Shown here piece after piece: positions 5,907 through 53,144 of a DNA stretch of 64,000 nt. Both the position numbers and the translations under genes were made by a program. Location: assembly GCF_024700885.2 (NCBI RefSeq), contig NZ_CP117016.1. The stretch is one strand, 5' to 3'. The notes under the pieces were generated by a model, which saw nothing but the letters and a program-made list of their open reading frames with translations, was not told the DNA's origin and did not search any database. Source of the DNA: Escherichia coli (GTDB lineage: Bacteria; Pseudomonadota; Gammaproteobacteria; Enterobacterales; Enterobacteriaceae). Position 1 is the first letter of the stretch; every line of letters begins with the position of its first letter.

Positions 5907-6467
5907 ATGGCAACTTTTGGCTACGGACGTGTTTCGACATCGCAGCAGGATACTGAGAACCAACGGCTGGAGCTTGGGCAGGCTGGGTGGCAAATTGATT
6001 ACTGGTTTGCCGATGTTGTTAGCGGGAAGGTTCCGGCAATGCAACGTAAAGCATTTTCTGAAATGCTCAATAAAATCCGCGATGGTGAAACGTTGGTGGT
6101 AGCGAAGCTTGATCGTCTGGGGCGTGATGCGATTGACGTCCTGCAAACGGTAAGGGCGCTGGCTGACCGTAATATCAAGGTTCTTGTCCACCAGCTTGGT
6201 AACACAGATCTCACTTCTGCCGCTGGGAAGTTGCTATTATCTATGCTCGCCGCGGTTGCGGAGATGGAGCGTGATCTGCTGATTGAGCGCACTCAGGCGG
6301 GACTATCACGAGCAAAAGCCGAAGGTAAGAAATTGGGCAGACCTCCTAAAATCGCGTCAGAAGCCCGTAGAGAGATTTTAGAGAAAAAGAATAGCGGTTT
6401 GAGTATCAGTGCGTTAGCGCGTCAATATGGCGTTTCAAGAGCGACTGTAGCAGCTATTACCGATTGA
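5907..6467 (+). CDS. Small serine recombinase (resolvase/invertase family)
   Basis: N-terminal GYGRVSTSQQ catalytic-serine motif and C-terminal HTH (LSISALARQYGVSRATV); start at MATFGYGRVS with SD ggggag. Confidence 0.85.
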   Translation: MATFGYGRVSTSQQDTENQRLELGQAGWQIDYWFADVVSGKVPAMQRKAFSEMLNKIRDGETLVVAKLDRLGRDAIDVLQTVRALADRNIKVLVHQLGNTDLTSAAGKLLLSMLAAVAEMERDLLIERTQAGLSRAKAEGKKLGRPPKIASEARREILEKKNSGLSISALARQYGVSRATVAAITD

Positions 6468-6480
6468 ATATGGAGAGTTT

Positions 6481-7326
6481 ATGGCTTACACAGCAACTGT
6501 TATCCCTGTAATGATTGCTTCTCCTGGTGATGTCGCTGAAGAGAGACAAGTCATTCGTGAAATGATCCATGAGTGGAATGATATAAATTCAGCTCGTTCA
6601 AAAGTAATGTTGACACCAATTGGATGGGAAACTCATACATCACCCGAATTAGGAGTTAGGCCTCAGAAGTTGATTAATCAAAGATTATTAGTAGATTGTG
6701 ATTTATTAATCGGTGTGTTTTGGACTCGTCTAGGCTCACCGACTGGGAACGAGGCCAGCGGAACAGTCGAAGAAATCCACCGTCATTTGAATGCGGGAAA
6801 ACCGGCAATGATTTACTTTTCCTCAAAGCCTGTTGCCCCTGAAAGCCTTGATAGAGAACAATATGAGTCTCTTAAATTGTTCAAAACTGAGTGCATGCAA
6901 AAGGGATTGATAGAGTCTTTTAATGACTTATCTGATTTCAAAGACAAAGTCCGTAGGCAACTTTCGATAATTATTTCTAGTAGCCCTTATTTGTCTTCTC
7001 TTATATCTACCATTAACAATTCTCCTGATGCGAATACAAGTCAATCTTTGCCAGAAAGTAATTTGTCCGCCGATGCACTCAGTTTGCTGAAATTGGCATG
7101 TGTCGATGATAGCGGAACAATTTATGTGATAAGGCATTTAGGTGGCACGGATATTCAAGCGGGAAATCAATCCTTTGGTGGAAGTTCGGCTAGAGAGGTA
7201 GCCCGTTGGGAGGGCGCACTTAACGAACTGTTATCCTTTGATTATGTGATTGAAAGAGGGGCAAAAGGACAAATGTATTATGTTACTCATAAAGGCTGGA
7301 CATTTCTTGAATCTTTAAATGAATAA
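6481..7326 (+). CDS. Hypothetical protein, 281 aa; N-terminal motif resembles DUF4062/TIR-like domains (tentative)
   Basis: Starts 13 bp after the recombinase stop with its own SD (ggagag); N-terminus VMIASPGDVAEERQVI fits a strand-SxxD-x-EER pattern; C-terminal half unassigned. Confidence 0.6.
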   Translation: MAYTATVIPVMIASPGDVAEERQVIREMIHEWNDINSARSKVMLTPIGWETHTSPELGVRPQKLINQRLLVDCDLLIGVFWTRLGSPTGNEASGTVEEIHRHLNAGKPAMIYFSSKPVAPESLDREQYESLKLFKTECMQKGLIESFNDLSDFKDKVRRQLSIIISSSPYLSSLISTINNSPDANTSQSLPESNLSADALSLLKLACVDDSGTIYVIRHLGGTDIQAGNQSFGGSSAREVARWEGALNELLSFDYVIERGAKGQMYYVTHKGWTFLESLNE

Positions 7327-36798: not shown

Positions 36799-38076
36799 CT
36801 ATGTTTTTTTATTAGAATATTCGCCACTAAATAAATTATAATAAGTTGATTTTATTAGATATCTATCAGAATCTATATGGTCAGCACGAGTTGCATGCTC
36901 TAATGTTTCAAATGCCAGGGTATGTGCGGCTTCAGCAAATATCCCTGGCCAACCTTTACTCAGCATCGACAGTCCTTTAAGGACTCTTATCTGAATCTCC
37001 CTCATACTGGCACCATCGCGCGCGACAGGTGAGAAAAAGTCTTCCAGTAGATCGTTATTCTGAAGTGGTGCAACATGTACTGAAGGATATTTCACTTCTA
37101 TTTCATCAGATTTATTCTGCGCGTAAGTGGAAAGTATACGAACACCTCTGCCAATGACATCAATGGCGGTTCCAGGATCGTTCACTGCAGGGGAAAGGGC
37201 CCGGCAGGCTATTTCGGCCATGACGCTAAGACAAAATCGAGGATCCTGAGCAAATGAACGTGCATCCGAGACAATAATCGTCTCAAGTAAATCGGTGCTG
37301 ATTGACGACTCCTGGCCCTGACTCAGGTACAAAACTGGCATGGACGGATGTATGAAACTGCCTGGCTGCGCCACGAGGTATACATGACGGGGATCATTGG
37401 TCAGCAGCTTGCTAAGTTTCACCATATCAATATATTCAACATAGCCAATCTTCTTCGGATAAACTGCAACCGTTCCTTTCGGCTGTTCATTGTTCTCAAG
37501 CCATGGATATCCGCCGAGACAGGGATTTCTTGCTCTCGCAATAAATGTTTCGATGGCCGCCTGTTCTACTTGTGCCGTTGTCTCACCAACCCTCCCCAGA
37601 GAGGTCAAATGCTGTATCCAGCGAAGCAATGTGATGAGGATTAAGGCAATGACAACCAGTGTGACAATGAATAAAATGACTCTCCCCCTTTCTCCATAAG
37701 CTCCCATATTGAGGGCAATAATCCCTACCAGACTGAAGAGAAAAGAACCGATGAAGGTGGCCAGTACATTTTGTGTGGTGACGTCTTCAACAACTAAACG
37801 CGTAGCTCTGGGAGTCACATTAGTAGTGGCTGAACCGTAGGCTGTGACCATGATACTCAGCGAAAATGTGGTCACTGCCAGCATACTCGATGCCAGTATG
37901 TTCAGAATGTTATCGACTGCTTCCGCACCAACCTTCACGGAAACCGACTCAGGTATCATTGATTTAAAAAGAATTGATAAAAGGGCCGTTATTATCGCGA
38001 CAATTGCGAATAACGTTGCCCTGAACCATAGTTTTTTAATTGTCTGCTTCAGCATCCATTTCCAGCGTGAAATCAT
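36799..38076 (-). CDS. DUF2254-family membrane protein
   Basis: Multi-TM N-terminal half plus soluble domain; start ambiguous (38091 or 38076). Confidence 0.55.
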   Translation of the reverse strand: MISRWKWMLKQTIKKLWFRATLFAIVAIITALLSILFKSMIPESVSVKVGAEAVDNILNILASSMLAVTTFSLSIMVTAYGSATTNVTPRATRLVVEDVTTQNVLATFIGSFLFSLVGIIALNMGAYGERGRVILFIVTLVVIALILITLLRWIQHLTSLGRVGETTAQVEQAAIETFIARARNPCLGGYPWLENNEQPKGTVAVYPKKIGYVEYIDMVKLSKLLTNDPRHVYLVAQPGSFIHPSMPVLYLSQGQESSISTDLLETIIVSDARSFAQDPRFCLSVMAEIACRALSPAVNDPGTAIDVIGRGVRILSTYAQNKSDEIEVKYPSVHVAPLQNNDLLEDFFSPVARDGASMREIQIRVLKGLSMLSKGWPGIFAEAAHTLAFETLEHATRADHIDSDRYLIKSTYYNLFSGEYSNKKT

Positions 38077-38138
38077 TCTGCATTCCCTCATATTGCGGCC
38101 GGGATAATAATTGCCGCCCCCAGGACGGCATGTTGCTA

Positions 38139-40142
38139 TTAACGAACCAGGTGCAGGAAGTGCAGATGTTTTTCGTACTGGTCCAGTATGTCATTAATCA
38201 GCTGTTCCTGGTTCCAGCCCATCACATCATAATTTTGACCGCCTTCTTTGAGATAAACCTCAGCGCGATAATATCGATGTTGTTCAGTCTGCTGCTCATC
38301 ATTATCCATTGCGGCGAGCGCGAAGGTCGGTGAGATATACCCGCGAAGCCTCACTTCATATATAAAATTCAGCTCGTTGCCCAAATCGACTTCAAGACGA
38401 ATACGATCGTCGACTGCATCACTAATGTGGCTTATCGTCCCCTGCTTGTTCAGTTCCTCCTGAACCAGCGTCATGGCGGGCTGGATAACGTCGTCCATAA
38501 AACGTTTCACAAGAGATCGCTTCGGCAGATACGCGATATTGCGTAACCTTCTCTGCCAAGGAATTGGGTTACGTGCAGCCGTAGGAGCAATTGTCGCCAT
38601 GCTCAGGCTTTCACGCTTGGTCAAATCCCGGCGCAAAGCTTTTAAAAGTCCGTATATAGATATTAGTAAGATCACTGAGAAGGGCAATGCACTCGCTATT
38701 GTCACCGTTTGCAGCGCACTTAGCCCTCCGGCAAGGAGAAGCGCAATTGCAACAATGCCCATGAGCGAGGCCCAGAATATTCGCTGCCAGACGGGTGTGT
38801 TTGCCACTCCACCTGATGCCAGAGTATCCACAACCATTGCCCCCGAATCAGCAGACGTTACAAAGAAGACGATGACCATCGCCATTGCAATGAATGACAG
38901 CACAGAAGAGAACGGGAAATGCTCCAGGAAATTAAACAGGGCCAGCGCCACATCCTGCTGAACAGTATTGGCGAGGTCTGTGGCCCCCTGGTTCATAATG
39001 AGATAGATCGCGCTGTTACCAAACACCGTCATCCACATTAGCGTAAAACCCGCGGGAACAAACAGCACGCCGGTGACAAACTCGCGAATGGTTCGCCCGC
39101 GGGAGACTCGTGCGATGAACATCCCCACAAACGGCGACCATGAAAGCCACCATCCCCAGTACAGTAATGTCCAGCCCCCCAGCCAGTTGCTCGACTTGGG
39201 CTCATACGCGTAAAGGTTGAACGTTTTACTCACCAGTTCCGAAAGATAACCGCCCGTATTTTCCACAAATGACTTCAGCAGAAGCACGGTTGGTCCCAGA
39301 CACAGGACCAGCGCCAGGAGCAACAAAGCCAGACCCAGATTGAGTTCAGACAGGATACGTATTCCCTTATCCAGACCGGACACCACTGAAATCGTCGCTA
39401 ACCCCGTGATGACCACGATCAGAATTACCTGCACCGTTTCATTGATGGGCACCCCGAAAAGATGGTTCAAACCGGCATTCACCTGCAAAACACCGTAACC
39501 CAGTGATGTCGCAACGCCAAAGACCGTGCCTATAACAGCGAAAATATCAACCGCATGTCCTACAGGTCCGTATATGCGATCGCCAATAATGGGATAGAGT
39601 GCGGAGCGCAGAGTTAAAGGCAGACCGTGACGGTAACTGAAGAACGCCAGAATCAGCGCCACAATGGCATAAATTGCCCATGCGTGCAGTCCCCAGTGGA
39701 AAAAGGTCAGACGCATTGCTTCCTTAGCTGCCGCAACGGTTTCTGGAGTGCCAACGGGTGGCGAAAGATAATGCATTACAGGTTCGGCAACGCCAAAGAA
39801 CATCAGGCCGATCCCCATCCCTGCCGAAAAAAGCATCGCAAACCAGGAGTGGTAGCTGAAATCAGGCTGCGCATGGTCCGGGCCCAGCTTGATATCACCG
39901 TAGCGTGAGAGTCCAAGGAACGTGACACTCAGTAAAATCAGGGCCACAGCAAGGATGTAGAACCAGCTGGCATTCGTGAAGATTTGTTGCTGAAGTAGTT
40001 TAAAATTTTTGTCGGCGACATCCGGGAATACGGCGGCAAAGGCGACAAGAAGGAAAATTAGCAAAGCAGATGTAAAGAATACCGCTTTGTTAATCTGACT
40101 TGTAGACTTCTTTGGGATTGTATCATTTTCACTCATAATCAT
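38139..40142 (-). CDS. BCCT-family betaine/carnitine/choline transporter
   Basis: 667 aa; BetT-like polytopic protein with long C-terminal cytoplasmic tail. Confidence 0.75.
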   Translation of the reverse strand: MIMSENDTIPKKSTSQINKAVFFTSALLIFLLVAFAAVFPDVADKNFKLLQQQIFTNASWFYILAVALILLSVTFLGLSRYGDIKLGPDHAQPDFSYHSWFAMLFSAGMGIGLMFFGVAEPVMHYLSPPVGTPETVAAAKEAMRLTFFHWGLHAWAIYAIVALILAFFSYRHGLPLTLRSALYPIIGDRIYGPVGHAVDIFAVIGTVFGVATSLGYGVLQVNAGLNHLFGVPINETVQVILIVVITGLATISVVSGLDKGIRILSELNLGLALLLLALVLCLGPTVLLLKSFVENTGGYLSELVSKTFNLYAYEPKSSNWLGGWTLLYWGWWLSWSPFVGMFIARVSRGRTIREFVTGVLFVPAGFTLMWMTVFGNSAIYLIMNQGATDLANTVQQDVALALFNFLEHFPFSSVLSFIAMAMVIVFFVTSADSGAMVVDTLASGGVANTPVWQRIFWASLMGIVAIALLLAGGLSALQTVTIASALPFSVILLISIYGLLKALRRDLTKRESLSMATIAPTAARNPIPWQRRLRNIAYLPKRSLVKRFMDDVIQPAMTLVQEELNKQGTISHISDAVDDRIRLEVDLGNELNFIYEVRLRGYISPTFALAAMDNDEQQTEQHRYYRAEVYLKEGGQNYDVMGWNQEQLINDILDQYEKHLHFLHLVR

Positions 40143-40246
40143 TTATTCCATTAATTAAATTCGCACTGGATAGAAGGTACTACCTCTCACAAAGTAGCAA
40201 AGTTCAACTGGCTATGCGGCGTTAATCGGAATGCATGGTGGAATGT

Positions 40247-41493
40247 TGAGGTGTACTGGCAATAGCGGACACTACCATTTGTTCTTTTTTTAAGCAGCCA
40301 TCTGATGATATTTTTCCCTGAAGGCTGCCGGGGAGATATTCCCCAGACGAGAGTGACGACGCTGACGATTGTAGAAAATCTCAATGTATTCCCGTATTAC
40401 TGAGATGGCTTCATCCCGGTTATTAAAACGATAGTGGCTCAGGCTCTCATTTTTCAGCGTTCCCCAGAAGCTTTCCATCGGAGCGTTGTCGTAACAGTTA
40501 CCTTTACGCGACATTGATGTTTTCAGACCAAACTGCTCCTGTATGACACGGTAATCGTATGCGCAGTACTGTGAACCTCGATCAGAGTGGTGGATTAGCC
40601 CGGCAGGTGGGCGCTGGCTCCTGAGCGCCATAAACAGGGCTTTACCTGTCAGCTCTTTTGTCATGCGCTCTCCCATGGCGTAGCCGACAATTTCGCACGT
40701 ATAAACATCTTTGATGCCAGCGAGGTACAACCATCCCTCCTGTGTGGCAACATACGTCAGGTCCGCCACCCAGACCTGATTTGGTGCTGTAGGAGCGAAC
40801 GTCTGGTTCAGCAGATTTGGCGCAACTGGCAGATTGTGGTTCGAGTTCGTAGTCGCTCTGAACTTGCGTTTCTGCTTACAGCGTAGCCTTAGCTCCTTAC
40901 GAAGACGTGCCAGTCGGTCACGACCAACGATGATGCCATTCTCTGCCAGCTCCGTCTGGAGCTGCCGGGTTCCATATGTTTCGCGAGTGCGGATATGCGC
41001 CACCTTAATCTCCAGTTTTAGCCGCTCATCACTTTGTTTTCTGTCTGAGGGTTCATGCTGTACCCAGTTGTAATAACCGCTCCTGGATACACCAAATACC
41101 TGACACATCGCTTCAATGGGAAATTGTTGTCGCCATTGTTCGATTAACGCGTATTTTTCAGCGACTCCTGTGCAATTTAATATATCTCGCTCAAGGCGAG
41201 CTTCATTTAACGCCTTACGCAGTTGCAGAATTTCAGATTCCAGTTCAGCCACCGTGCGGGAACCAGGAGTACCGAGCCCTTTTCTGGCGGCGGTAACCCA
41301 TTGTCCTAAAGTGCCTTCAGGAAGAGATAATCGGGAAGCACCTTCACTGATCGAAAGTTGATTTTCAAGAACCGTTCTGACAGCTTCGGCTTTGAACTCT
41401 TTAGAGTAACGTTGGGTTTTTCTGCTCATTATTAGCTCCTTCTGATGCCATTCTATTTCAGGAAGGAGTGTCCGTTAAACTCAGGCTACCTCA
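40247..41493 (-). mobile_element. IS3-family insertion sequence (1247 bp), imperfect terminal IRs TGAGGT...CGGACACT
   Basis: Terminal repeats at 40247-40276 and 41464-41493; internal transposase. Confidence 0.7.
40290..41429 (-). CDS. IS3-family transposase encoded as a single fused OrfAB reading frame (379 aa)
   Basis: N-terminal HTH and C-terminal DDE integrase core (ADLTYV, HHSDRGSQY, YDNAPMESFW) in one uninterrupted frame. Confidence 0.75.
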   Translation of the reverse strand: MSRKTQRYSKEFKAEAVRTVLENQLSISEGASRLSLPEGTLGQWVTAARKGLGTPGSRTVAELESEILQLRKALNEARLERDILNCTGVAEKYALIEQWRQQFPIEAMCQVFGVSRSGYYNWVQHEPSDRKQSDERLKLEIKVAHIRTRETYGTRQLQTELAENGIIVGRDRLARLRKELRLRCKQKRKFRATTNSNHNLPVAPNLLNQTFAPTAPNQVWVADLTYVATQEGWLYLAGIKDVYTCEIVGYAMGERMTKELTGKALFMALRSQRPPAGLIHHSDRGSQYCAYDYRVIQEQFGLKTSMSRKGNCYDNAPMESFWGTLKNESLSHYRFNNRDEAISVIREYIEIFYNRQRRHSRLGNISPAAFREKYHQMAA

Positions 41494-41575
41494 TTGGTTC
41501 CCACTACTTATTTGGTGGACACCACTTTGTCTAATTCGTCAGATTCTGACCAGACGGTTCAGGCTGTACGCTTAC
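41494..41575 (-). mobile_element. Orphan IS66-family terminal fragment (82 bp)
   Basis: Same 82-bp string as 49521-49602, the left end of the IS66 copy at 47315-49602, ending ...GTACGCTTAC. Confidence 0.7.
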
Positions 41576-41609
41576 AAACAACTAGTGGAAATACTTGTAC
41601 TTTATAATT

Positions 41610-42554
41610 TCAAGGGTACGGGTCCGCTTCGTTTGATTTGCGTGTTTTTAACAATTTTAAAACCCAGACATACTGTTCCGGATGTGGCCCCACCAAAATT
41701 TCCACTGTTTTGTTCATTTGTCGGGCAATCATTTTATTGTCCGCGCTGGCAATGCAAGCATCCATTGGTGGCCGAATTTCAATAGTCAGGAGATGTTTTT
41801 TTTCATCATAAACCGGGAAAAGTGGTATAATCATAGCCTGACTGATGTTCATCAGACGTCCAATGATTGGTAATGTCGCTTTATAGGTCGCAAAAAAATC
41901 AGCAAATTCACTGTATTCAGGACCATGATCCTGATCTGGGAGGTAATATCCCCAGTATCCCTGGCGTACTGACTGAATAAATGGTTTTATCCCATCCTCC
42001 CGGGCATGTAAGCGCCCCCCGAATTTACGCCGTACTGAATTCCAGACATAATCAATCACTGGATTTCGTTGCTGATGAAACATGGCGGCCATTTTTTTTC
42101 CCTGAGCTGCCAGCAACATTGCAGGAATATCCACGCTCCAGCCATGGGGAACCAGAAAAATCACATTTCTATTATTGTGTCGAATTTCCTCAAGAATTTC
42201 GAGGCCTTTCCAGAACACTCGTTTCTGGAACTTTTCCGGACCACGAATTGCCAGTTCTGCCATCATCACTATGGATTGCAATGCTGTGGCAAACATTTTG
42301 TCGACAATTATTTCCCGTTCTGTATCACTCTTTTCTGGGAAACAAAGCGATAAATTAATCGTCGCCCTGCGACGAGCTTTTTTGCTCAATCTGCCCACCC
42401 AACGCCCTATTTTTGCCAAGACAGGATCTCTGAATGAAGGGGGAAACATTGAAATACCTGCAATCATTCCCAAAAGGAACCATGTAGACCAGTAAACAGG
42501 GGAAAGGTAATTTTTCTTAAATTCAGGAATAAACTCAGATTTATATTTTTTCAT
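41610..42554 (-). CDS. Lipid A secondary acyltransferase (LpxL/LpxM family, MsbB2-like)
   Basis: 314 aa; LpxM-family call on overall similarity (acyltransferase H-box region around VPHGWS); adjacency to a virK-like gene as on Shigella virulence plasmids. Confidence 0.7.
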   Translation of the reverse strand: MKKYKSEFIPEFKKNYLSPVYWSTWFLLGMIAGISMFPPSFRDPVLAKIGRWVGRLSKKARRRATINLSLCFPEKSDTEREIIVDKMFATALQSIVMMAELAIRGPEKFQKRVFWKGLEILEEIRHNNRNVIFLVPHGWSVDIPAMLLAAQGKKMAAMFHQQRNPVIDYVWNSVRRKFGGRLHAREDGIKPFIQSVRQGYWGYYLPDQDHGPEYSEFADFFATYKATLPIIGRLMNISQAMIIPLFPVYDEKKHLLTIEIRPPMDACIASADNKMIARQMNKTVEILVGPHPEQYVWVLKLLKTRKSNEADPYP

Positions 42555-42618
42555 TATTTAGTGCGAATGCCTCTACCAAAATTATCATTACTGTTTTATT
42601 CAGAGAATACATCAAACC

Positions 42619-43233
42619 TTAATTTAAATTCTGATGTTCTGAGTGTACAGGATATGCATCCAAAGAGCGGATAGTAGTTTCATGGATATAATCCAGCAAA
42701 GCGTATCGTTTTCGGTACTCAGAGCGTTTTTTACTGGCTATATCGCTTAGCGGCTTTCGAATCACCTGGGTTGGTAATCTGTACCAGTCACCACAGGTTT
42801 TTCCTGCTACAGACTCCCAGAAATCACTATAGACCGCAACAAAGGTTTTGCGTTTCTGATACCAGTATCTCAATTGCCGGAAAACATGACTGTGCTCACT
42901 GACTGCCAGACACTCAGAGATATTGCAAGCTTTCATCAACGCACAAAATGCTTCAAAAATAATCCGTTTTGGGAAAATCCCATAACAGGCCCGGGTTGCG
43001 CACCGAATAACATCAGGTCCGGTATTTTTAGGGGCTCCCTGTAATCCGCCAATAAAAGCAATGTGTCCATTTTGAGTCAGAATGACTGAAAATGTTAACC
43101 GGGCAATAACTGTTTTATTGTAAAACAATGACAACATCAACTCTCCTTCCCGGTCAAAACCACTGGGAGAACACTGGATATCAAAATTCTCTCCATCTTT
43201 CCCGATGAATTGGACTAATGATACCGATTTTTG
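42619..43233 (-). pseudogene. VirK-like (DUF535) gene, 5'-truncated at the IS1 boundary
   Basis: C-terminal 173 aa (IGGLQG, ACYGIFPKRI, RKTFVAVYSDFW); ORF runs into the IS1 end at 43234. Confidence 0.55.
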
Positions 43234-43288
43234 GGTAATGCTGCCAACTTACTGATTTAGTGTATGATGGTGATTTTAAGGTGCTTGC

Positions 43289-43564
43289 GTGGCTTCCATT
43301 TCCATCAGATGTCCTTCCTGCTCCGCTACTGAAGGCGTGGTGCGTAACGGCAAAAGCACTGCCGGACATCAGCGCTATCTCTGCTCTCATTGCCGTAAAA
43401 CATGGCAACTACAGTTCACTTACACCGCCTCTCAGCCCGGTACGCACCAGAAAATCATTGATATGGCCATGAATGGCGTCGGATGTCGCGCCAGTGCACG
43501 CATTATGGGCGTTGGCCTCAACACGGTTTTACGTCACTTAAAAAACTCAGGTCGCAGTCGGTAA
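43289..43564 (+). CDS. insA: IS1 InsA
   Basis: [30 protein letters not shown]... Confidence 0.85.
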
Positions 43565-43986
43565 CCTCGCGCATACAACCGGGCAGTGATGTGATTGTCT
43601 GCGCTGAAATGGACGAACAGTGGGGCTACGTCGGTGCTAAATCACGTCAGCGCTGGCTGTTTTACGCGTATGACAGGATACGGAGGACGGTTGTGGCGCA
43701 CGTCTTCGGTGAACGCACTCTGGCCACACTGGAGCGTCTTCTGAGCCTGCTGTCGGCCTTTGAGGTCGTGGTATAGATGACGGATGGCTGGCCGCTGTAT
43801 GAATCACGCCTGAAGGGAAAGCTGCACGTTATCAGCAAGCGTTACACTCAGCGCATTGAGCGACATAATCTGAATCTGAGACAACATCTGGCAAGGCTGG
43901 GACGGAAGTCACTGTCGTTCTCAAAATCGGTGGAGCTGCATGACAAGGTCATCGGGCATTATCTGAACATAAAACACTATCAGTAA
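43483..43986 (+). pseudogene. insB: IS1 InsB with in-frame TAG stop at 43774-43776
   Basis: Translation reads ...[18 protein letters not shown] across the stop; canonical IS1 has W at this position as I recall it. Confidence 0.7.
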
Positions 43987-44071
43987 GTTGGAGTCATTAC
44001 CTCCTCCCGAACTCAAAGCTATCATACAGATAATTACTGGTTAACCCTATATAGGGCATTTTAAAGTGTTG

Positions 44072-44400
44072 TGATCTTACCCAGCAATAGTGGACACGCG
44101 GCTAAGTGAGTAAACTCTCAGTCAGAGGTGACTCACAAGACAAAACAGTTTCAACCAGTAAAAAAACGTAAACACCATTCGCATGAATTTCGTAGTTAAG
44201 ATCTGAAGCTTGCAGAATGCATCGGTGTTACTGCCGGAGTCCGTGAACTTAGTCTGCATGAATCACCACAGCTTTACATCTGTCGCAGTAAACAGCAAAA
44301 TCAGCAAACTTACTTAATTATATCGAGTGCGATTACAATCGCTGGCGATGGTACAGTTGGTGTGGCGGTCTCAGTCCGGAACAATTTGAAAATCAGAATC
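44072..44400 (+). mobile_element. IS3 internal-deletion relic (left IR, 5' of orfA, fused to the 3' end region)
   Basis: TGATCTTACCCAGCAATAGTGGACACGCGGCTAAGTGAG... followed by degenerate orfA 5' sequence and then orfB 3' sequence. Confidence 0.55.
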
Positions 44401-44710
44401 TCACTTAAAACGGCATCCATTTTACAAAAGATGGCCGTCTGTGTATTTATAATGAATACCTTCTACATGTTTAGAGTGCATAATCCACGACAAGGCGATA
44501 TCCTAAAAATTAGCTAGCAGGCAACTTTGATGGCATAGATAATGTTTTTAGTAAAAAAGAGTTGACTTAATATAATACAGCCTCTTCCTACATAAGAAGG
44601 AATGTGCTCACAAAAAAAAACATTAGTCTGCTTCCTGTTCTTACAATAATCAGTATTATGTATTTTATTTATATAGCAAAATATGCTTGTTACACCTGTC
44701 ATAATTAGGC

Positions 44711-45004
44711 ATGGTAAAATTATTGACTGAACCCTGGGGGAGAAAGATGCACAGTGATTATTATAATATGGTTTTTGGTGAAAAATTGGCCAATATTTTA
44801 TATGAAGCTAACTCTCAATTTTTTTACGAGAGAAATGTCATAGAAGAGGCAGTCAACGCTTTATTCTGTGAGCGTGAAATAATAAACAACAAGAACATAA
44901 TAAAGAAGCTGATGTTCTTTTTGTCAGATGTTAATCACACCAAGAAAGATGTTGTTCAGAGCGCACTTAATATTATCATTGACATTACATCAGGTGATAT
45001 TTGA
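44711..45004 (+). CDS. Hypothetical small protein (97 aa), AT-rich
   Basis: ORF only; no recognisable motif; weak support. Confidence 0.25.
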   Translation: MVKLLTEPWGRKMHSDYYNMVFGEKLANILYEANSQFFYERNVIEEAVNALFCEREIINNKNIIKKLMFFLSDVNHTKKDVVQSALNIIIDITSGDI

Positions 45005-45261
45005 GATTTTACATAAAAGATAATCTCTCAAGGAGTCTTATCTGAAAACGAAATATATAGTCCCTCTCGTTTTGTAATATCGATTGGCTTTGTTGAATCG
45101 GTTACGTACCCCGGAGCCGGTCATATTTTCAGGTAATACACACGCTTTCAGACATTTCGGCTTTCGTCATTTTGGTATCATGGGCATAGCTTCTGCTACC
45201 TGACCATCATAATCACGCAGCTTCAGTGAAGCAGTGACCACCTGTTTAACCCGGTGTATCG

Positions 45262-45486
45262 TTATGATCTTATCCAGCAATAATGGACACGCGGCTAAGT
45301 GAACCGCCCCGGGTTTCCTGGAGAGTGTTTTATCTGTGAACTCAGGCTGCCAGATCATCGTTTCCGATGGAAGCATAATAAGCTTTTTCTGCTTCTGCCG
45401 GTGGGATATGGCCCTGCCTTTCCAGCAATCGTCGATTGTTATACCAGTCCACCCACGTGAGTGTGGTCAGCTCATCATACTGACAC
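45262..45486 (-). mobile_element. IS3-family (IS629-like) 3' fragment abutting a second IS3 left-IR copy
   Basis: Minus-strand frame encodes ...WVDWYNNRRLLERQGHIPPAEAEKAYYASIGNDDLAA; end sequence TGAACCGCCCCGGGTTTCCTGGAGAG. Confidence 0.5.
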
Positions 45487-45754
45487 GTGCATTACCCCTA
45501 CCGCGATAATGCAACCGTACAATATAGGGCGTTTCCTAAACGCAGCCCTCATCACTCCAATCCAACAAGACACAGCATTTTTGATCACGAAGAAAGACAA
45601 ATAATTTCCGTAAATGTTTCCGTTGTTACAAATAACAACAGTGTTTTACATTTCTTTGGCCTCAGGCCCGCGCATGTTGCCATTCGATGTCATTTTCCTG
45701 ACTCGTTTCTTCTTTATGGTGTAGTGTGATCTTCACTTTATGGATGCTAACAAT

Positions 45755-51916: not shown

Positions 51917-53144
51917 GATAACGGTTCATGTATCCCCTGAGCTGACAGTGTACCGTGTATATTAAGCGTAACCGACAGGTTCTCCTTCATACCATATTAA
52001 ATTTTCCAGGGATTGCCGCTGCCTTATTTCGTCTCATACAGGAAAACTCATCTGGGTTTCTGACAAATACGCGAAACTCACAGCCCCTCAATATCAACCA
52101 CACGTTGTAAGCCGGTAATACCTGAAAATCAGCCTATTACCGCCCACGCCTCCGGCACCATTCCCTTTTGATTTCGAATTCTTTGTTGTCGCTATACCGC
52201 TTAATGTTCCCGGTCCTCCGGTGCAGATAACACCGGAGTCATCGTAGCGCTGCTTCAATATTCAGGTGACATATTTCCAGACGGAAGCCGGCGCGCGATC
52301 GTAAAGTTTGTTCATTGTCAGTTCTGCCAGCCGGTTGTCAACGGCAGAGTTAAAGGCTTCCAGCTCCGCAAGGGTAAGTTTATAACGCGTGTGGGAATTC
52401 ACTTTTCCCGCGTCTCCTGACGTATTACGGGCTGCCACTTACCTGGTGTCCCGCAATACAGCCTTAGTGTTCCGTTATCGGGGATCCGGACGCACCGCAA
52501 CAACCGGGGAAGTATTTCTGGTTTAGAGCATTGTCAAGAGGGATTTCTCAGCCCCTCACTCACCGCTCAGTCTCAGGGCAGGAGCATTAATACGCTCAGT
52601 TCATGTCTTATACAGGAATGGGCACAGGGGGAGCTGGCGTGTCACTGCTGATTTTACGCATCAGCGTTCATGTATCTGCACTCTGATACATGAACGATTC
52701 ACAGCGCTCTGTTACCGGAGAGATTTACTCTCTTAGCTTACTCTGGCAAATCCTTTACGTTACTCTCTGATGACTTCTTATATTTATAATACCAATCAGA
52801 CAGCCTTATCCCATCGGTGATATCAGTCTCCTCCTCGCCAGGAACGGGCTGACTCACTGTAACCACCTCCGAAAACAACTCTGCAATTATCAGAACGCCT
52901 GCTTCTCTCCCTGTCCTCACGAAAACTATCCCCTCTTTATCGCGCGTGCGTGCGGAAGCATCTTTTCGCAACAACCACCCGGTATACCGGTACGGCTCAG
53001 CCACCGCAACCTCCCCGTTTATCTCCTGGCGGTCACATTCCCGATTATTTTTTACGTTTCTCCCCGGTTGTTATGCCGGTGAAGGTGGCGCGCTGTTTTC
53101 ATGACCACACCGGCTGGTTTAACAACATCCGGAGGAACATTCTC

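Follow-up and report, generated by a model that had tools for sequence, protein, structure and literature searches.

In the window, the whole stretch of 64,000 nucleotides of Escherichia coli DNA that was analysed, two direct copies of an IS3 left end enclose AT-rich DNA with an intact AriR-like gene. We consider it probable, though by no means certain, that this locus is a nested stack of fossil IS elements which originated on an IncF plasmid, and that the product of the enclosed gene is made and feeds into the Rcs phosphorelay. AriR/YmgB is a known family of regulators for stress and biofilm; AriR (YmgB) itself, a 'connector' protein of E. coli, is small and helical.

The enclosed ORF belongs to the AriR/YmgB family

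The original prediction had placed a 97-aa ORF of no known family in AT-rich DNA between the IS3 left ends. The ORF is indeed located there (44711..45004), within a non-IS cassette of ~0.6 kb and GC ~0.31 on the plus strand (44439..45065) that comprises the AriR-like gene and its flanking DNA up- and downstream; in a composition scan the GC content was 0.31-0.36 across 44350-45100. However, its family could be assigned. The profile search that had been suggested for the ORF matched Pfam PF10798 (YmgB/AriR) at positions 2-59 of the 59 in the profile, with 27.3 bits for an 85-aa and 26.7 bits for the 97-aa reading, a margin of only ~5 bits over the gathering cut-off of 22.3 bits. BLASTP aligned the protein end to end with AriR of K-12 (30% identity over 83 aa, E 3e-8), phmmer matched it to the AriR chain 2OXL (E 1.2e-3), and a search of NCBIfam gave no meaningful match. 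Thus, AriR-family homologues exist, although the original prediction had left room for there being none.

The AlphaFold2 model of the 85-aa protein (pLDDT 80.3, pTM 0.70) has four helices, and its top Foldseek match was 2oxl_A with a probability of 1.00, an rmsd of 0.9 Å over 57 columns and a TM of 0.86 on the target. For this predicted structure 2OXL was the sole meaningful fold match in the PDB, and the next match had an E of 1.8. In an alignment of 30 sequences the protein, a single domain of 85 aa, shows all 8 invariant residues (E28, A35, N48, K49, I51, D68, L74 and T81, including the NNKNII motif), which is weak evidence since the window protein was part of the alignment from which the invariant columns were derived; of the near-invariant columns 4 of 7 are present. 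By sequence and predicted fold, the window gene is a member of the AriR/YmgB family. RefSeq names WP_000239862.1 a 'biofilm development regulator YmgB/AriR family protein', so the assignment was already known and the finding is largely ordinary; as a discovery, ordinary IS wreckage around a gene with an assigned family matters little.

The conserved start, as judged by sequence comparison, is ATG 44747 (85 aa) and not ATG 44711 (97 aa). The gene spans 44747..45004 on the plus strand (85 codons plus stop), and a Shine-Dalgarno-like GGGGGAG, read directly, is located 4 nt before its ATG (44736..44742, plus strand). This element is kept as GGGGGA in a diverged lineage of the cassette, in which only ATG 44747 is in frame owing to a 1-nt indel that separates it from the other ATG; the 97-aa reading with ATG 44711 as start thus has no conserved frame. 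MHSDYY forms the N-terminus of the homologues P0032 and P0033. PGAP uses three different starts for the AriR-like gene; the annotation should read 85 aa with ATG 44747 as start.

Distribution and lineages of the cassette

The AriR-like cassette is present in single copy in 1,699 of 5,426 complete E. coli genomes (31%) and on ~49 IncF-type plasmids, and the exact protein is encoded on at least 1,000 contigs. With carriers at this frequency, any regulatory effect of the gene would matter widely. B/BL21-type laboratory strains, REL606, O26 and O103 are among the carriers; K-12 is without the gene. Copies of the mosaic are at least 98% identical, and all internal junctions are the same in chromosomes and IncFIA plasmids, which argues that the mosaic was assembled once.

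The only copy with 86% identity (CP073337.1, L009) was rejected as an assembly artefact, with indels everywhere and 31 annotated features in 70 kb. Likewise, P0039, P0040 and P0053, which had appeared as 'homologues' of 55-84%, turned out to be the same gene read with frameshifts. The '620 member sequences' given for P0028 refer to the whole 90% cluster including the window protein, and the P0028 variant itself is found on 3 contigs.

The diverged lineage (L011, L012 and L015) differs by 12% in DNA (88% identity) and retains 87% amino acid identity with the full frame kept. Its cassette has no IS3 and lies between an end of the Tn3 family and one that is IS1-like; the part common to both lineages reaches from 44496 to just past ...CCCTCTCG, with BLAST extending to 45069. 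Some plasmids have the AriR-like gene interrupted at codon 6 by a Tn3-family end, and a clean deletion is found in 414 of the 5,426 complete genomes. Since, in addition, K-12 is without it, the gene is dispensable.

Selection on the gene and signals for its expression

The original prediction had also called the DNA 'probably junk', on which the data point both ways. Wherever the cassette is present, i.e., in the 1,699 complete genomes, the ORF is intact, and none of the copies in 29 evenly sampled genomes bears a pseudogene flag. Between the two lineages there are 0 indels in the 258 nt of the ORF versus 5 events in the 251 nt upstream (calculated p ~0.03). Synonymous sites were saturated in long-range comparison to AriR, P0061 and P0065 (pS 0.80-0.86), with pN at 0.35-0.48. 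The conserved frame, start and Shine-Dalgarno element, the indel contrast and the long-range pN/pS speak for a genuine gene and not an ORF that arose by chance. On the other hand, recent purifying selection could not be demonstrated: dN/dS between the lineages was ~0.75 (3.5 synonymous and 11.5 non-synonymous changes), which is indistinguishable from neutrality and based on 15 substitutions only, and among the copies with 98-100% identity 3 of 5 substitutions are non-synonymous.

These values are also what a recently silenced or decaying remnant of the AriR family would show, an unexpressed hitch-hiker that is kept since the whole mosaic is young. We regard this as a serious alternative, yet clearly less probable than a gene whose product is made. 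It would agree with the frequent loss or disruption of the gene, and the high identity of the copies left little time for intactness to be tested. Furthermore, no convincing expression signals were found: a promoter scan of the plus strand upstream of the ORF gave nothing beyond chance as judged by shuffles, and nothing resembling a terminator hairpin was found behind the gene (z = -0.36). DNA with 31% GC is of the kind that is usually silenced by H-NS, which may hold for this gene as well. However, a decaying remnant is hard to reconcile with a frame, start and Shine-Dalgarno element that are kept at 12% DNA difference while the flanks accumulated 5-6 indels, or with the retention of all family-invariant residues and a confidently predicted AriR-like fold; the lack of pseudogene flags in the 29 sampled genomes speaks against it as well. 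By eye, a perfect TATAAT (44571-44576) and TGgTAAAAT (44712-44720) are conserved in both lineages, neither of which we claim as a promoter.

A nested stack of IS fragments

We return to the preferred reading, in which the gene is enclosed by a stack of fossil IS elements. The window of 64 kb contains exactly two occurrences of the IS3 left inverted repeat (IR) pattern TGATCTTACCCAGCAATAGTGGACACGCGGCTAAGTGA, both on the plus strand (44072-44109 with 0 mismatches, 45265-45302 with 2 mismatches by pattern search), while none is expected by chance (100 shuffles). A repeat search returned the pair as 42 nt with 93% identity, 1193 bp apart. Two direct copies ~1.2 kb apart had been predicted, and this arrangement holds.

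The first copy, relic A (44072..44425, plus strand), consists by BLAST against IS3 of K-12 of the left IR with IS3 nt 1-238 (44072-44309, 88.8% identity) joined to nt 1134-1245 (44314-44425, 83.9%). IS3 nt 239-1133 (895 bp) are gone, and conservation stops short of the final 13 nt of the right IR. Pseudogene fragments annotated by RefSeq span relic A. It is thus the IS3 deletion relic that had been proposed, with its end at ~44425-44438 instead of ~44400. The second copy, stub B, had been given as 45262-45298; it is present and oriented like relic A but starts at 45265 (45265..45302, plus strand; IS3 nt 1-38, 2 mismatches). Neither copy has two terminal IRs of the 5'-TG...CA-3' type with intact orfA and orfB, as a functional IS3 would. 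The terminal IRs and adjoining sequence of IS3 match the window copies at 84-95% (relic A at 84-89%), and no living copy closer to relic A than IS3 was seen in the 5,426 genomes.

Relic A abuts a 70-bp fragment of an omptin (OmpP/OmpT-like) protease gene of IncF-plasmid type (44002..44071, minus strand), which matches the intact omptin genes of ~690 plasmids at 95.7% identity. An intact gene reads ...AAAGTGTTG/TTTGTAGCC across the IS3 insertion point (slash), and TTG 44069-44071, the final 3 nt of the fragment, is native omptin sequence. On this sequence evidence the omptin gene is the native target of the first IS3-like insertion. To the left follows an IS1 pseudogene copy (IS1F-like; 43234..44001, plus strand) with 23-nt terminal inverted repeats (43234-43256 and 43979-44001), labelled by RefSeq 'IS1 family transposase, programmed frameshift; internal stop'.

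At the other end of the cassette, a ~200-bp terminal fragment of an IS903-like (IS5-family) element (45066..45264, minus strand) begins with its IR GGCTTTGTTGAAT and is cut by stub B. It is 73-76% identical to IS903B, and RefSeq labels it 'IS5/IS1182 family transposase, frameshifted, partial'. This fragment and the omptin fragment are absent from the original prediction. Stub B in turn is interrupted, as had been proposed, at about base 38 by an IS629/IS1203-like right-end fragment (45300..45478, minus strand), which was inserted at ~nt 35-38 and then truncated. Its right terminus (TGAACCGCCCCGGG...) runs from 45300 to ~45473-45478 with 95.5% identity to IS1203 from the terminus, and RefSeq labels it a partial IS3-family transposase. 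The junction is ambiguous by 3 nt since TGA is common to both elements. After 45478 chromosomal and IncFIA plasmid copies diverge. In comparison with IS3, IS629/IS1203 and IS903B, the window pieces are fragments without intact transposase; this result by BLAST and the frameshifted or partial flags of RefSeq bear out the term 'IS graveyard', and the IS pieces are incapable of further movement.

In most genomes the left neighbour of the mosaic is fec, in the window it is virK'/lpxM. A linkage of the AriR-like gene with the virK/lpxM locus was considered, as P0061 is also located near virK, but the two VirK proteins share only 52% identity and there is no common DNA; since fec replaces virK'/lpxM on the left in most genomes, this linkage is unsupported. 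A Hha/YmoA gene is present in the same island.

We propose that the plasmid omptin gene was hit by an IS3-like element, from which the middle and the right tip were subsequently lost. At a distance of about 0.6 kb, a second IS3-like copy would have struck an IS903-like element and was itself struck at nt 35-38 by an IS629-like element, and a deletion may then have removed most of these three elements. The mosaic, probably built once, would have spread as a unit to its present sites beside the fec iron-uptake island, or beside virK'-lpxM as in the window, on ~30% of E. coli chromosomes and some IncFIA/FIB plasmids. The locus is a tidy natural case of nested IS insertions.

Presence and absence of the segment between the IS3 ends

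In the natural short allele, the clean deletion of the 414 genomes, a segment of 1,196 bp is absent (44069..45264). It begins 3 bp ahead of the first IS3 left end and reaches up to, but not into, the second. The junction in strains H105 and STS63-2-E reads ...AAAGTG/TGATCTTATCC. The short allele is without the native omptin TTG and therefore a derived deletion, not an unoccupied site. A plain homologous crossover between the IR copies was rejected as its origin, as the junction is without TTG and has the B-type IR at both diagnostic positions. IS3-family transposases attack such terminus positions when forming figure-eight intermediates. Since one breakpoint of the deletion coincides exactly with the outer tip of an IS3 left end and the other is 3 bp external to its counterpart, these endpoints suggest IS3-family transposase chemistry, and a transposase acting in trans may have joined the two directly repeated left ends.

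The original prediction had raised the idea of a passenger gene between IS ends. The presence/absence polymorphism between the IS3 left ends agrees with it in part, but nothing points to a functional composite transposon, past or present. That the IS3 left ends form a still mobilisable, or at least once functional, composite transposon with the AriR-like gene as cargo is very unlikely in our view, even though two direct IS3-like copies flank the cassette, the DNA between them is present or absent in the population, and the block begins on its left precisely at the IS3 terminus both in the omptin and in an ester cyclase context. Relic A has neither a transposase nor a conserved right terminus, and the second copy is a 38-nt stub. 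The shared block stops inside the IS629 fragment and not at an IS3 end, the diverged lineage has the cassette without IS3, and the short allele represents a deletion. Functional outer ends, a flanking target-site duplication or an empty site were not found, the latter in a search of IncFIA plasmids with 0 of 2,376 records joining the two flanks. For the present locus a composite transposon is thus largely refuted.

We give hardly any credence to a small RNA or another small ORF (44362..44517, plus strand; 44514..44702, minus strand) as the functional product of the AT-rich DNA, since, although the conserved upstream region is long (~250 nt) and contains these ORFs, it has no Rfam match (best E 0.77, well below gathering) and no inverted repeats, the 62-aa antisense ORF of the other lineage has lost its start region to a 28-bp indel, the start of the 51-aa ORF is within the IS3 relic and thus outside the conserved cassette, and homologues exist for the AriR-like frame only.

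Proposed function and comparison with known systems

By homology at 30% identity, the window gene may encode a small AriR-like connector regulator. We propose that the 85-aa protein is made, forms an AriR-like helical dimer and acts by binding a host signalling protein, while its output would, by analogy to AriR, most plausibly run via the Rcs phosphorelay, with more capsule and less curli/biofilm as the result. AriR has two separate activities, activation of Rcs and binding of SpoT, of which the latter, together with ppGpp accumulation, requires R74; the variant R74G loses SpoT binding but keeps Rcs activation, and the AriR-Rcs mechanism is described as 'proposed' only (PMC10704370). In the window protein R74 is replaced by Q71 and the neighbouring near-invariant Glu by N75, so that this surface arginine of AriR proper is not present. 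Among the 30 aligned sequences Q at this position is confined to the window protein, P0032 and P0033, with R in all 27 others; an exchange of the adjacent Glu to N or D is likewise restricted to the window subfamily. Since R74 is exchanged in this subfamily only, the window protein probably does not act via SpoT/ppGpp.

The family member AriR of K-12 (88 aa versus 85 aa) shares with the window protein the NNKNII motif and a C-terminal D-V-(I/V)-x-x-x-L...T-x-D-D pattern, and in the 2OXL fold the same helical core is predicted. Its gene is also AT-rich (GC 35% versus 31%), but it scores 90 bits against PF10798 compared to 27 for the window protein. While ariR of K-12 (b1166) is part of the operon ycgZ-ymgA-ariR-ymgC adjoining and divergent from bluF/bluR, the window gene lies outside this operon, between IS relics in wreckage of plasmid origin, and is therefore a paralogue and not an orthologue. 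The ycgZ promoter contains a TGTACA-type palindrome; no inverted repeats or BluR-type palindrome were found upstream of the window gene. Due to its location outside the operon and the lack of this palindrome, control of the window gene by BluR/BluF is probably to be discounted.

If the SpoT/ppGpp arm was shed by the exchange of R74 to Q, the cassette might be a mobile 'Rcs-only' connector, through which IncF plasmids and the fec island would retune the envelope-stress, capsule and biofilm programme of their host. In combination with a short allele that records an IS3-family transposase reaction, this is an unlikely joint reading. A mobile AriR subfamily without the SpoT-binding residue would be a natural separation-of-function variant for the two proposed AriR outputs, Rcs and ppGpp. 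Among the papers searched there was none naming the protein accessions or a plasmid or island paralogue of AriR/YmgB.

The Hha/YmoA-type plasmid modulators are likewise small helical proteins on conjugative plasmids or genomic islands, and by analogy the window protein could tune chromosomal regulation as they do; this likeness is one of function alone, as the only significant family of the window protein is YmgB/AriR. Within this family an exhaustive search of 1.84 billion representatives returned only two distinct relatives, the P0061 and P0065 types, pointing to a tiny subfamily. Both have the same length and architecture as the window protein but retain the arginine equivalent to R74 of AriR, and neither has DNA-level homology to the window. 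The P0065 type (36% identity) is chromosomal, between ycgX and iraM in the canonical bluF-bluR-ycgX...icd locus. The P0061 type (46% identity) is carried by IncF plasmids such as pSA31IncF, and is thus plasmid-borne like the plasmid copies of the window gene; its cluster comprises genes for a shf-like deacetylase, MFS and SMR proteins, VirK, an IraM-like protein and a glycosyltransferase, so that a virK-family gene is nearby. By sequence, the P0061 and P0065 types are the closest true relatives of the window protein among the AriR-like paralogues of the E. coli pan-genome.

The AriR-like gene of the cassette

In the original prediction the AT-rich cassette held a 97-aa ORF of no known family, for which a profile search was proposed. 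That search matched Pfam family PF10798 (YmgB/AriR) with 26.7 bits for the 97-aa ORF and 27.3 bits for an 85-aa version, above the curated cut-off of 22.3 and across the whole 59-position profile; homologues exist, and the assignment as an orphan was wrong. Among PDB sequences phmmer returned the AriR/YmgB chain 2OXL (E 1.2e-3, 57 residues), while a better-scoring match to a 'de novo helical barrel' was dismissed as a repetitive helical artefact. K-12 AriR could be aligned by BLASTP over 83 of 85 residues (30% identity, E 3e-8), and the window protein retains all invariant columns of a 30-sequence family alignment, including the NNKNII motif. The AlphaFold2 model obtained from this alignment (pLDDT 80, pTM 0.70) consists of four helices, and its sole meaningful PDB match was again 2OXL (probability 1.00, rmsd 0.9 Å, TM 0.86 normalised to 2OXL). 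At the level of sequence and predicted fold, these data establish the window protein as an AriR-family member. The feature is already catalogued, as RefSeq names the product 'biofilm development regulator YmgB/AriR family protein' (WP_000239862.1, 97 aa; WP_223349491.1, 93 aa with a TTG start; WP_000555341.1, 85 aa). The subfamily may look like an orphan perhaps because the precomputed Pfam column of a large protein collection is empty for it.

A second cassette lineage is found on IncF plasmids (L011, L012, L015) and encodes the homologues P0032 and P0033 (87% identical). Its DNA is 88% identical to the window from 44496 to just past ...CCCTCTCG (BLAST reaches 45069); in this lineage a Tn3-family end limits the homology on the left, and an IS1-like end limits it on the right. 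ATG 44711 is out of frame there, shifted by an indel of 1 nt that lies between it and ATG 44747. The latter is kept together with the GGGGGA(G) in front of it, and P0032 and P0033 both begin with MHSDYY. Therefore, the gene comprises 85 codons (44747-45004, + strand). A 28-bp insertion/deletion separates the lineages at 44679-44706, 40 nt before the start codon, so that any promoter or leader element there differs between them. In some IncF plasmids codon 6 holds a Tn3-family transposon end (L016 860-920; window equivalent 44763/44764). These disrupted copies have neither the native start nor the upstream DNA, and gene callers add a new N-terminus from the transposon end (P0028).

The two lineages differ by 3.5 synonymous and 11.5 non-synonymous changes (dN/dS ~0.75), too few to separate constraint from neutrality. 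No indel is present in the 258 nt ORF, compared to five events in the 251 nt upstream (p ~0.03, calculated from the counts). In comparisons with the distant relatives P0061 and P0065 and with AriR, synonymous sites reach saturation (pS 0.80-0.86) at pN 0.35-0.48; these sequence comparisons show long-term purifying selection in the family and are silent on the present copy. Among copies within the block the ORF shows five substitutions, three of them non-synonymous. Overall, we regard the gene as intact and well formed; any function it has today is putative.

Insertion sequence remnants and history of the locus

The view of the surroundings as an IS graveyard was confirmed, since fragments of IS3, IS629/IS1203-like and IS903-like elements could be aligned, and the elements predicted (IS3 relic, second left IR, IS629-like fragment) hold, with positions shifted by a few bases. 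A pattern search over the 64 kb gave exactly two matches to the left inverted repeat of IS3, each on the + strand: 44072-44109 matches the query perfectly, and 45265-45302 has 2 mismatches. No match arose in 100 shuffles. Compared to a K-12 IS3 copy, the first relic comprises IS3 nt 1-238 (44072-44309, 88.8% identity) and nt 1134-1245 (44314-44425, 83.9%), and the final 13 nt of its right IR were unrecognisable in this alignment. The second copy is a stub (45265-45302) aligned to IS3 nt 1-38, and an IS629/IS1203-like right terminus runs from 45300 (95.5% identity over ~175 nt). At 45066-45264 an IS903-like element is represented by its terminal ~200 bp (IR GGCTTTGTTGAAT), which are 73-76% identical to IS903B and labelled 'IS5/IS1182 family transposase, partial' by RefSeq. 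The 70 bp at 44002-44071, which separate IS1 from the first IS3 end, are a fragment of an omptin (OmpP/OmpT-like) outer-membrane protease gene; this gene is intact on ~690 IncF-type plasmids, where ...AAAGTGTTG runs on into TTTGTAGCC. With all these fragments placed, the non-IS DNA is therefore restricted to ~44439-45065, with a GC content of ~0.31.

Chromosomes and IncFIA plasmids share every internal junction in identical form (IS3 relic, cassette, IS903', IS3 stub, IS629'), and on the plasmids the block has a truncated ester-cyclase gene on one side and the yacAB toxin-antitoxin genes on the other. Chromosome and IncFIA plasmid diverge on the left immediately outside the IS3 terminus and on the right after 45478, inside the IS629 fragment. 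Since no plasmid with the two flanks joined was found, the block arrived by rearrangement and not by simple insertion. Judging by its omptin fragment, the whole chromosomal module stems from an IncF plasmid. We propose that an IS3-like element entered the omptin gene, that the cassette came to be flanked by an IS903-like element, that a second IS3-like copy would then have entered IS903 and itself been entered by IS629 at nt 35-38, and that the remainder was probably lost through later deletion. A functional composite transposon of two IS3 ends and a passenger is not supported.

Past the stop codon by ~65 nt, after ...CCCTCTCGTT (45058-45071), four different IS junctions fall within a few bp. 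CCCTCTCGTT is directly followed by IS1A in E. coli B and, on Salmonella and E. coli plasmids, by an IS903B-like element; the IS1-like element of the diverged lineage starts 2 nt before that point, and the window's own IS903-like IR 14 nt beyond (compared at L003 ~6060-6075, L006 ~6985-7000 and L012 ~2700-2712). This clustering reflects either an insertion hot spot or the survivorship of events that spared the gene.

A short allele lacking 44069-45264 is present in 414 of 5,426 complete E. coli genomes, e.g. H105 and STS63-2-E. At the fec-IS1...phytase locus its junction joins ...AAAGTG to TGATCTTATCC (L030 2990-3010, L031), and the following 600 bp are 100% identical. As TTG (44069-44071) is native omptin sequence, the short allele is a deletion derived from the long allele. 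A plain crossover in the 38-nt IR homology was rejected, because TTG and, most likely, the IR bases of the first copy would remain. The deletion ends at the exact outer tip of the second left IR and 3 bp outside the first. In IS911 and IS3-family transposition, 3 bp outside the IR is the attack position in figure-eight formation, and 3 bp is also the IS3 target duplication length. Due to this offset, IS3-family transposase chemistry is suggested, and a transposase-mediated origin of the allele is plausible but unproven.

Chromosomal setting

The window is chromosomal E. coli DNA, and the locus sits inside a mosaic genomic island. In RefSeq, an lpxM paralogue, truncated virK, IS1 (pseudo) and small pseudogene fragments precede the AriR-like gene; after it come IS5/IS1182 and IS3-family fragments, a gene for a phytase-like esterase and IS66, and then an island of CP4 type that includes Hha, Ag43 and YeeU/CbtA. 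The region left of IS1 (41610-43140) holds an lpxM/msbB2-like second lipid A myristoyltransferase gene (314 aa) and virK truncated by IS1, a configuration common to 425 complete genomes; window 38000-44100 is 100% identical to strain MLI114 (NZ_CP117013.1). In most other strains of E. coli, fecIRABCDE-ykiE stands before this IS1 in place of virK'/lpxM. Another small horizontally carried regulator within the window is the Hha/YmoA-family nucleoid-associated protein encoded at 52263-52439 (- strand); its gene lies in the adjacent CP4-type island, as do Ag43, an antirestriction gene and the YeeU/CbtA toxin-antitoxin genes. A stretch of 53 bp (45496-45548) upstream of the phytase-like gene is 85% identical to a sequence on IncF plasmids carrying the diverged cassette (L011 209-261, L012 153-205), just upstream of a Tn3-family transposase fragment there.

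Proposed function and relation to known AriR proteins

A role as connector to the Rcs phosphorelay is proposed for AriR/YmgB, a small dimeric protein; its overexpression causes RcsB-dependent mucoidy, and R74G abolishes the SpoT arm but spares the Rcs arm (PMC10704370). The position of R74 is Q71 in the window protein and Q in P0032 and P0033, compared to R in the other 27 of the 30 aligned members, and the near-invariant Glu beside it is N or D in the same three proteins. If expressed, the window protein would act as a connector of the AriR type whose SpoT output is gone, leaving it at most a partner of the Rcs type or some other one. We infer a regulation independent of BluR/BluF, because the locus is different and no palindrome was seen upstream of the gene, and at 31% GC the gene may well be H-NS-silenced. 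While the identity of the DNA is very probable, this mode of action is put forward tentatively, as a possibility somewhat more doubtful than likely. Two small leads merit a record, the R74-to-Q substitution and the deletion delimited by the IRs.

The core cassette occurs in single copy in 1,699 of 5,426 complete E. coli genomes (1,689 chromosomal and 42 plasmid places, nearly all at least 99% identical) and on 49 PLSDB plasmids of Escherichia, Salmonella and Shigella; the exact window protein is found on at least 1,000 contigs. In most chromosomes the cassette comes after fecIRABCDE-ykiE-IS1, and in E. coli B the locus is cut by IS1A just after the AriR-like gene. Profile search recovered a wider AriR family of 456 proteins, and an exhaustive phmmer search of 1.84 billion representatives yielded two distinct relatives only, P0061 and P0065. 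The buffalo-derived IncF plasmid pSA31IncF (NZ_CP076277.1, L029, record 110026-123046) carries two AriR-like paralogues, one of the 46% P0061 type and one of the 88%-DNA lineage, with genes for an IraM-like anti-adaptor, VirK/YbjX, a shf-like deacetylase, SMR and MFS transporters and a glycosyltransferase, which together make up a plasmid-borne set of envelope genes and small modulators of stress signalling. P0065 (84 aa), a further AriR-like paralogue, lies in some E. coli between ycgX and iraM, near bluR/bluF (L024 2825-3079), where K-12 has tiny ORFs only (ymgK, a 36-aa hypothetical; L028 7010-7710). Compared to the window protein, P0065 shows 36% identity and belongs to the chromosomal bluF-bluR-ycgX...iraM-icd locus, while P0061 shows 46% identity and is carried on ~150-kb IncF plasmids amid shf-like deacetylase, MFS, SMR, VirK, IraM-like and glycosyltransferase genes.
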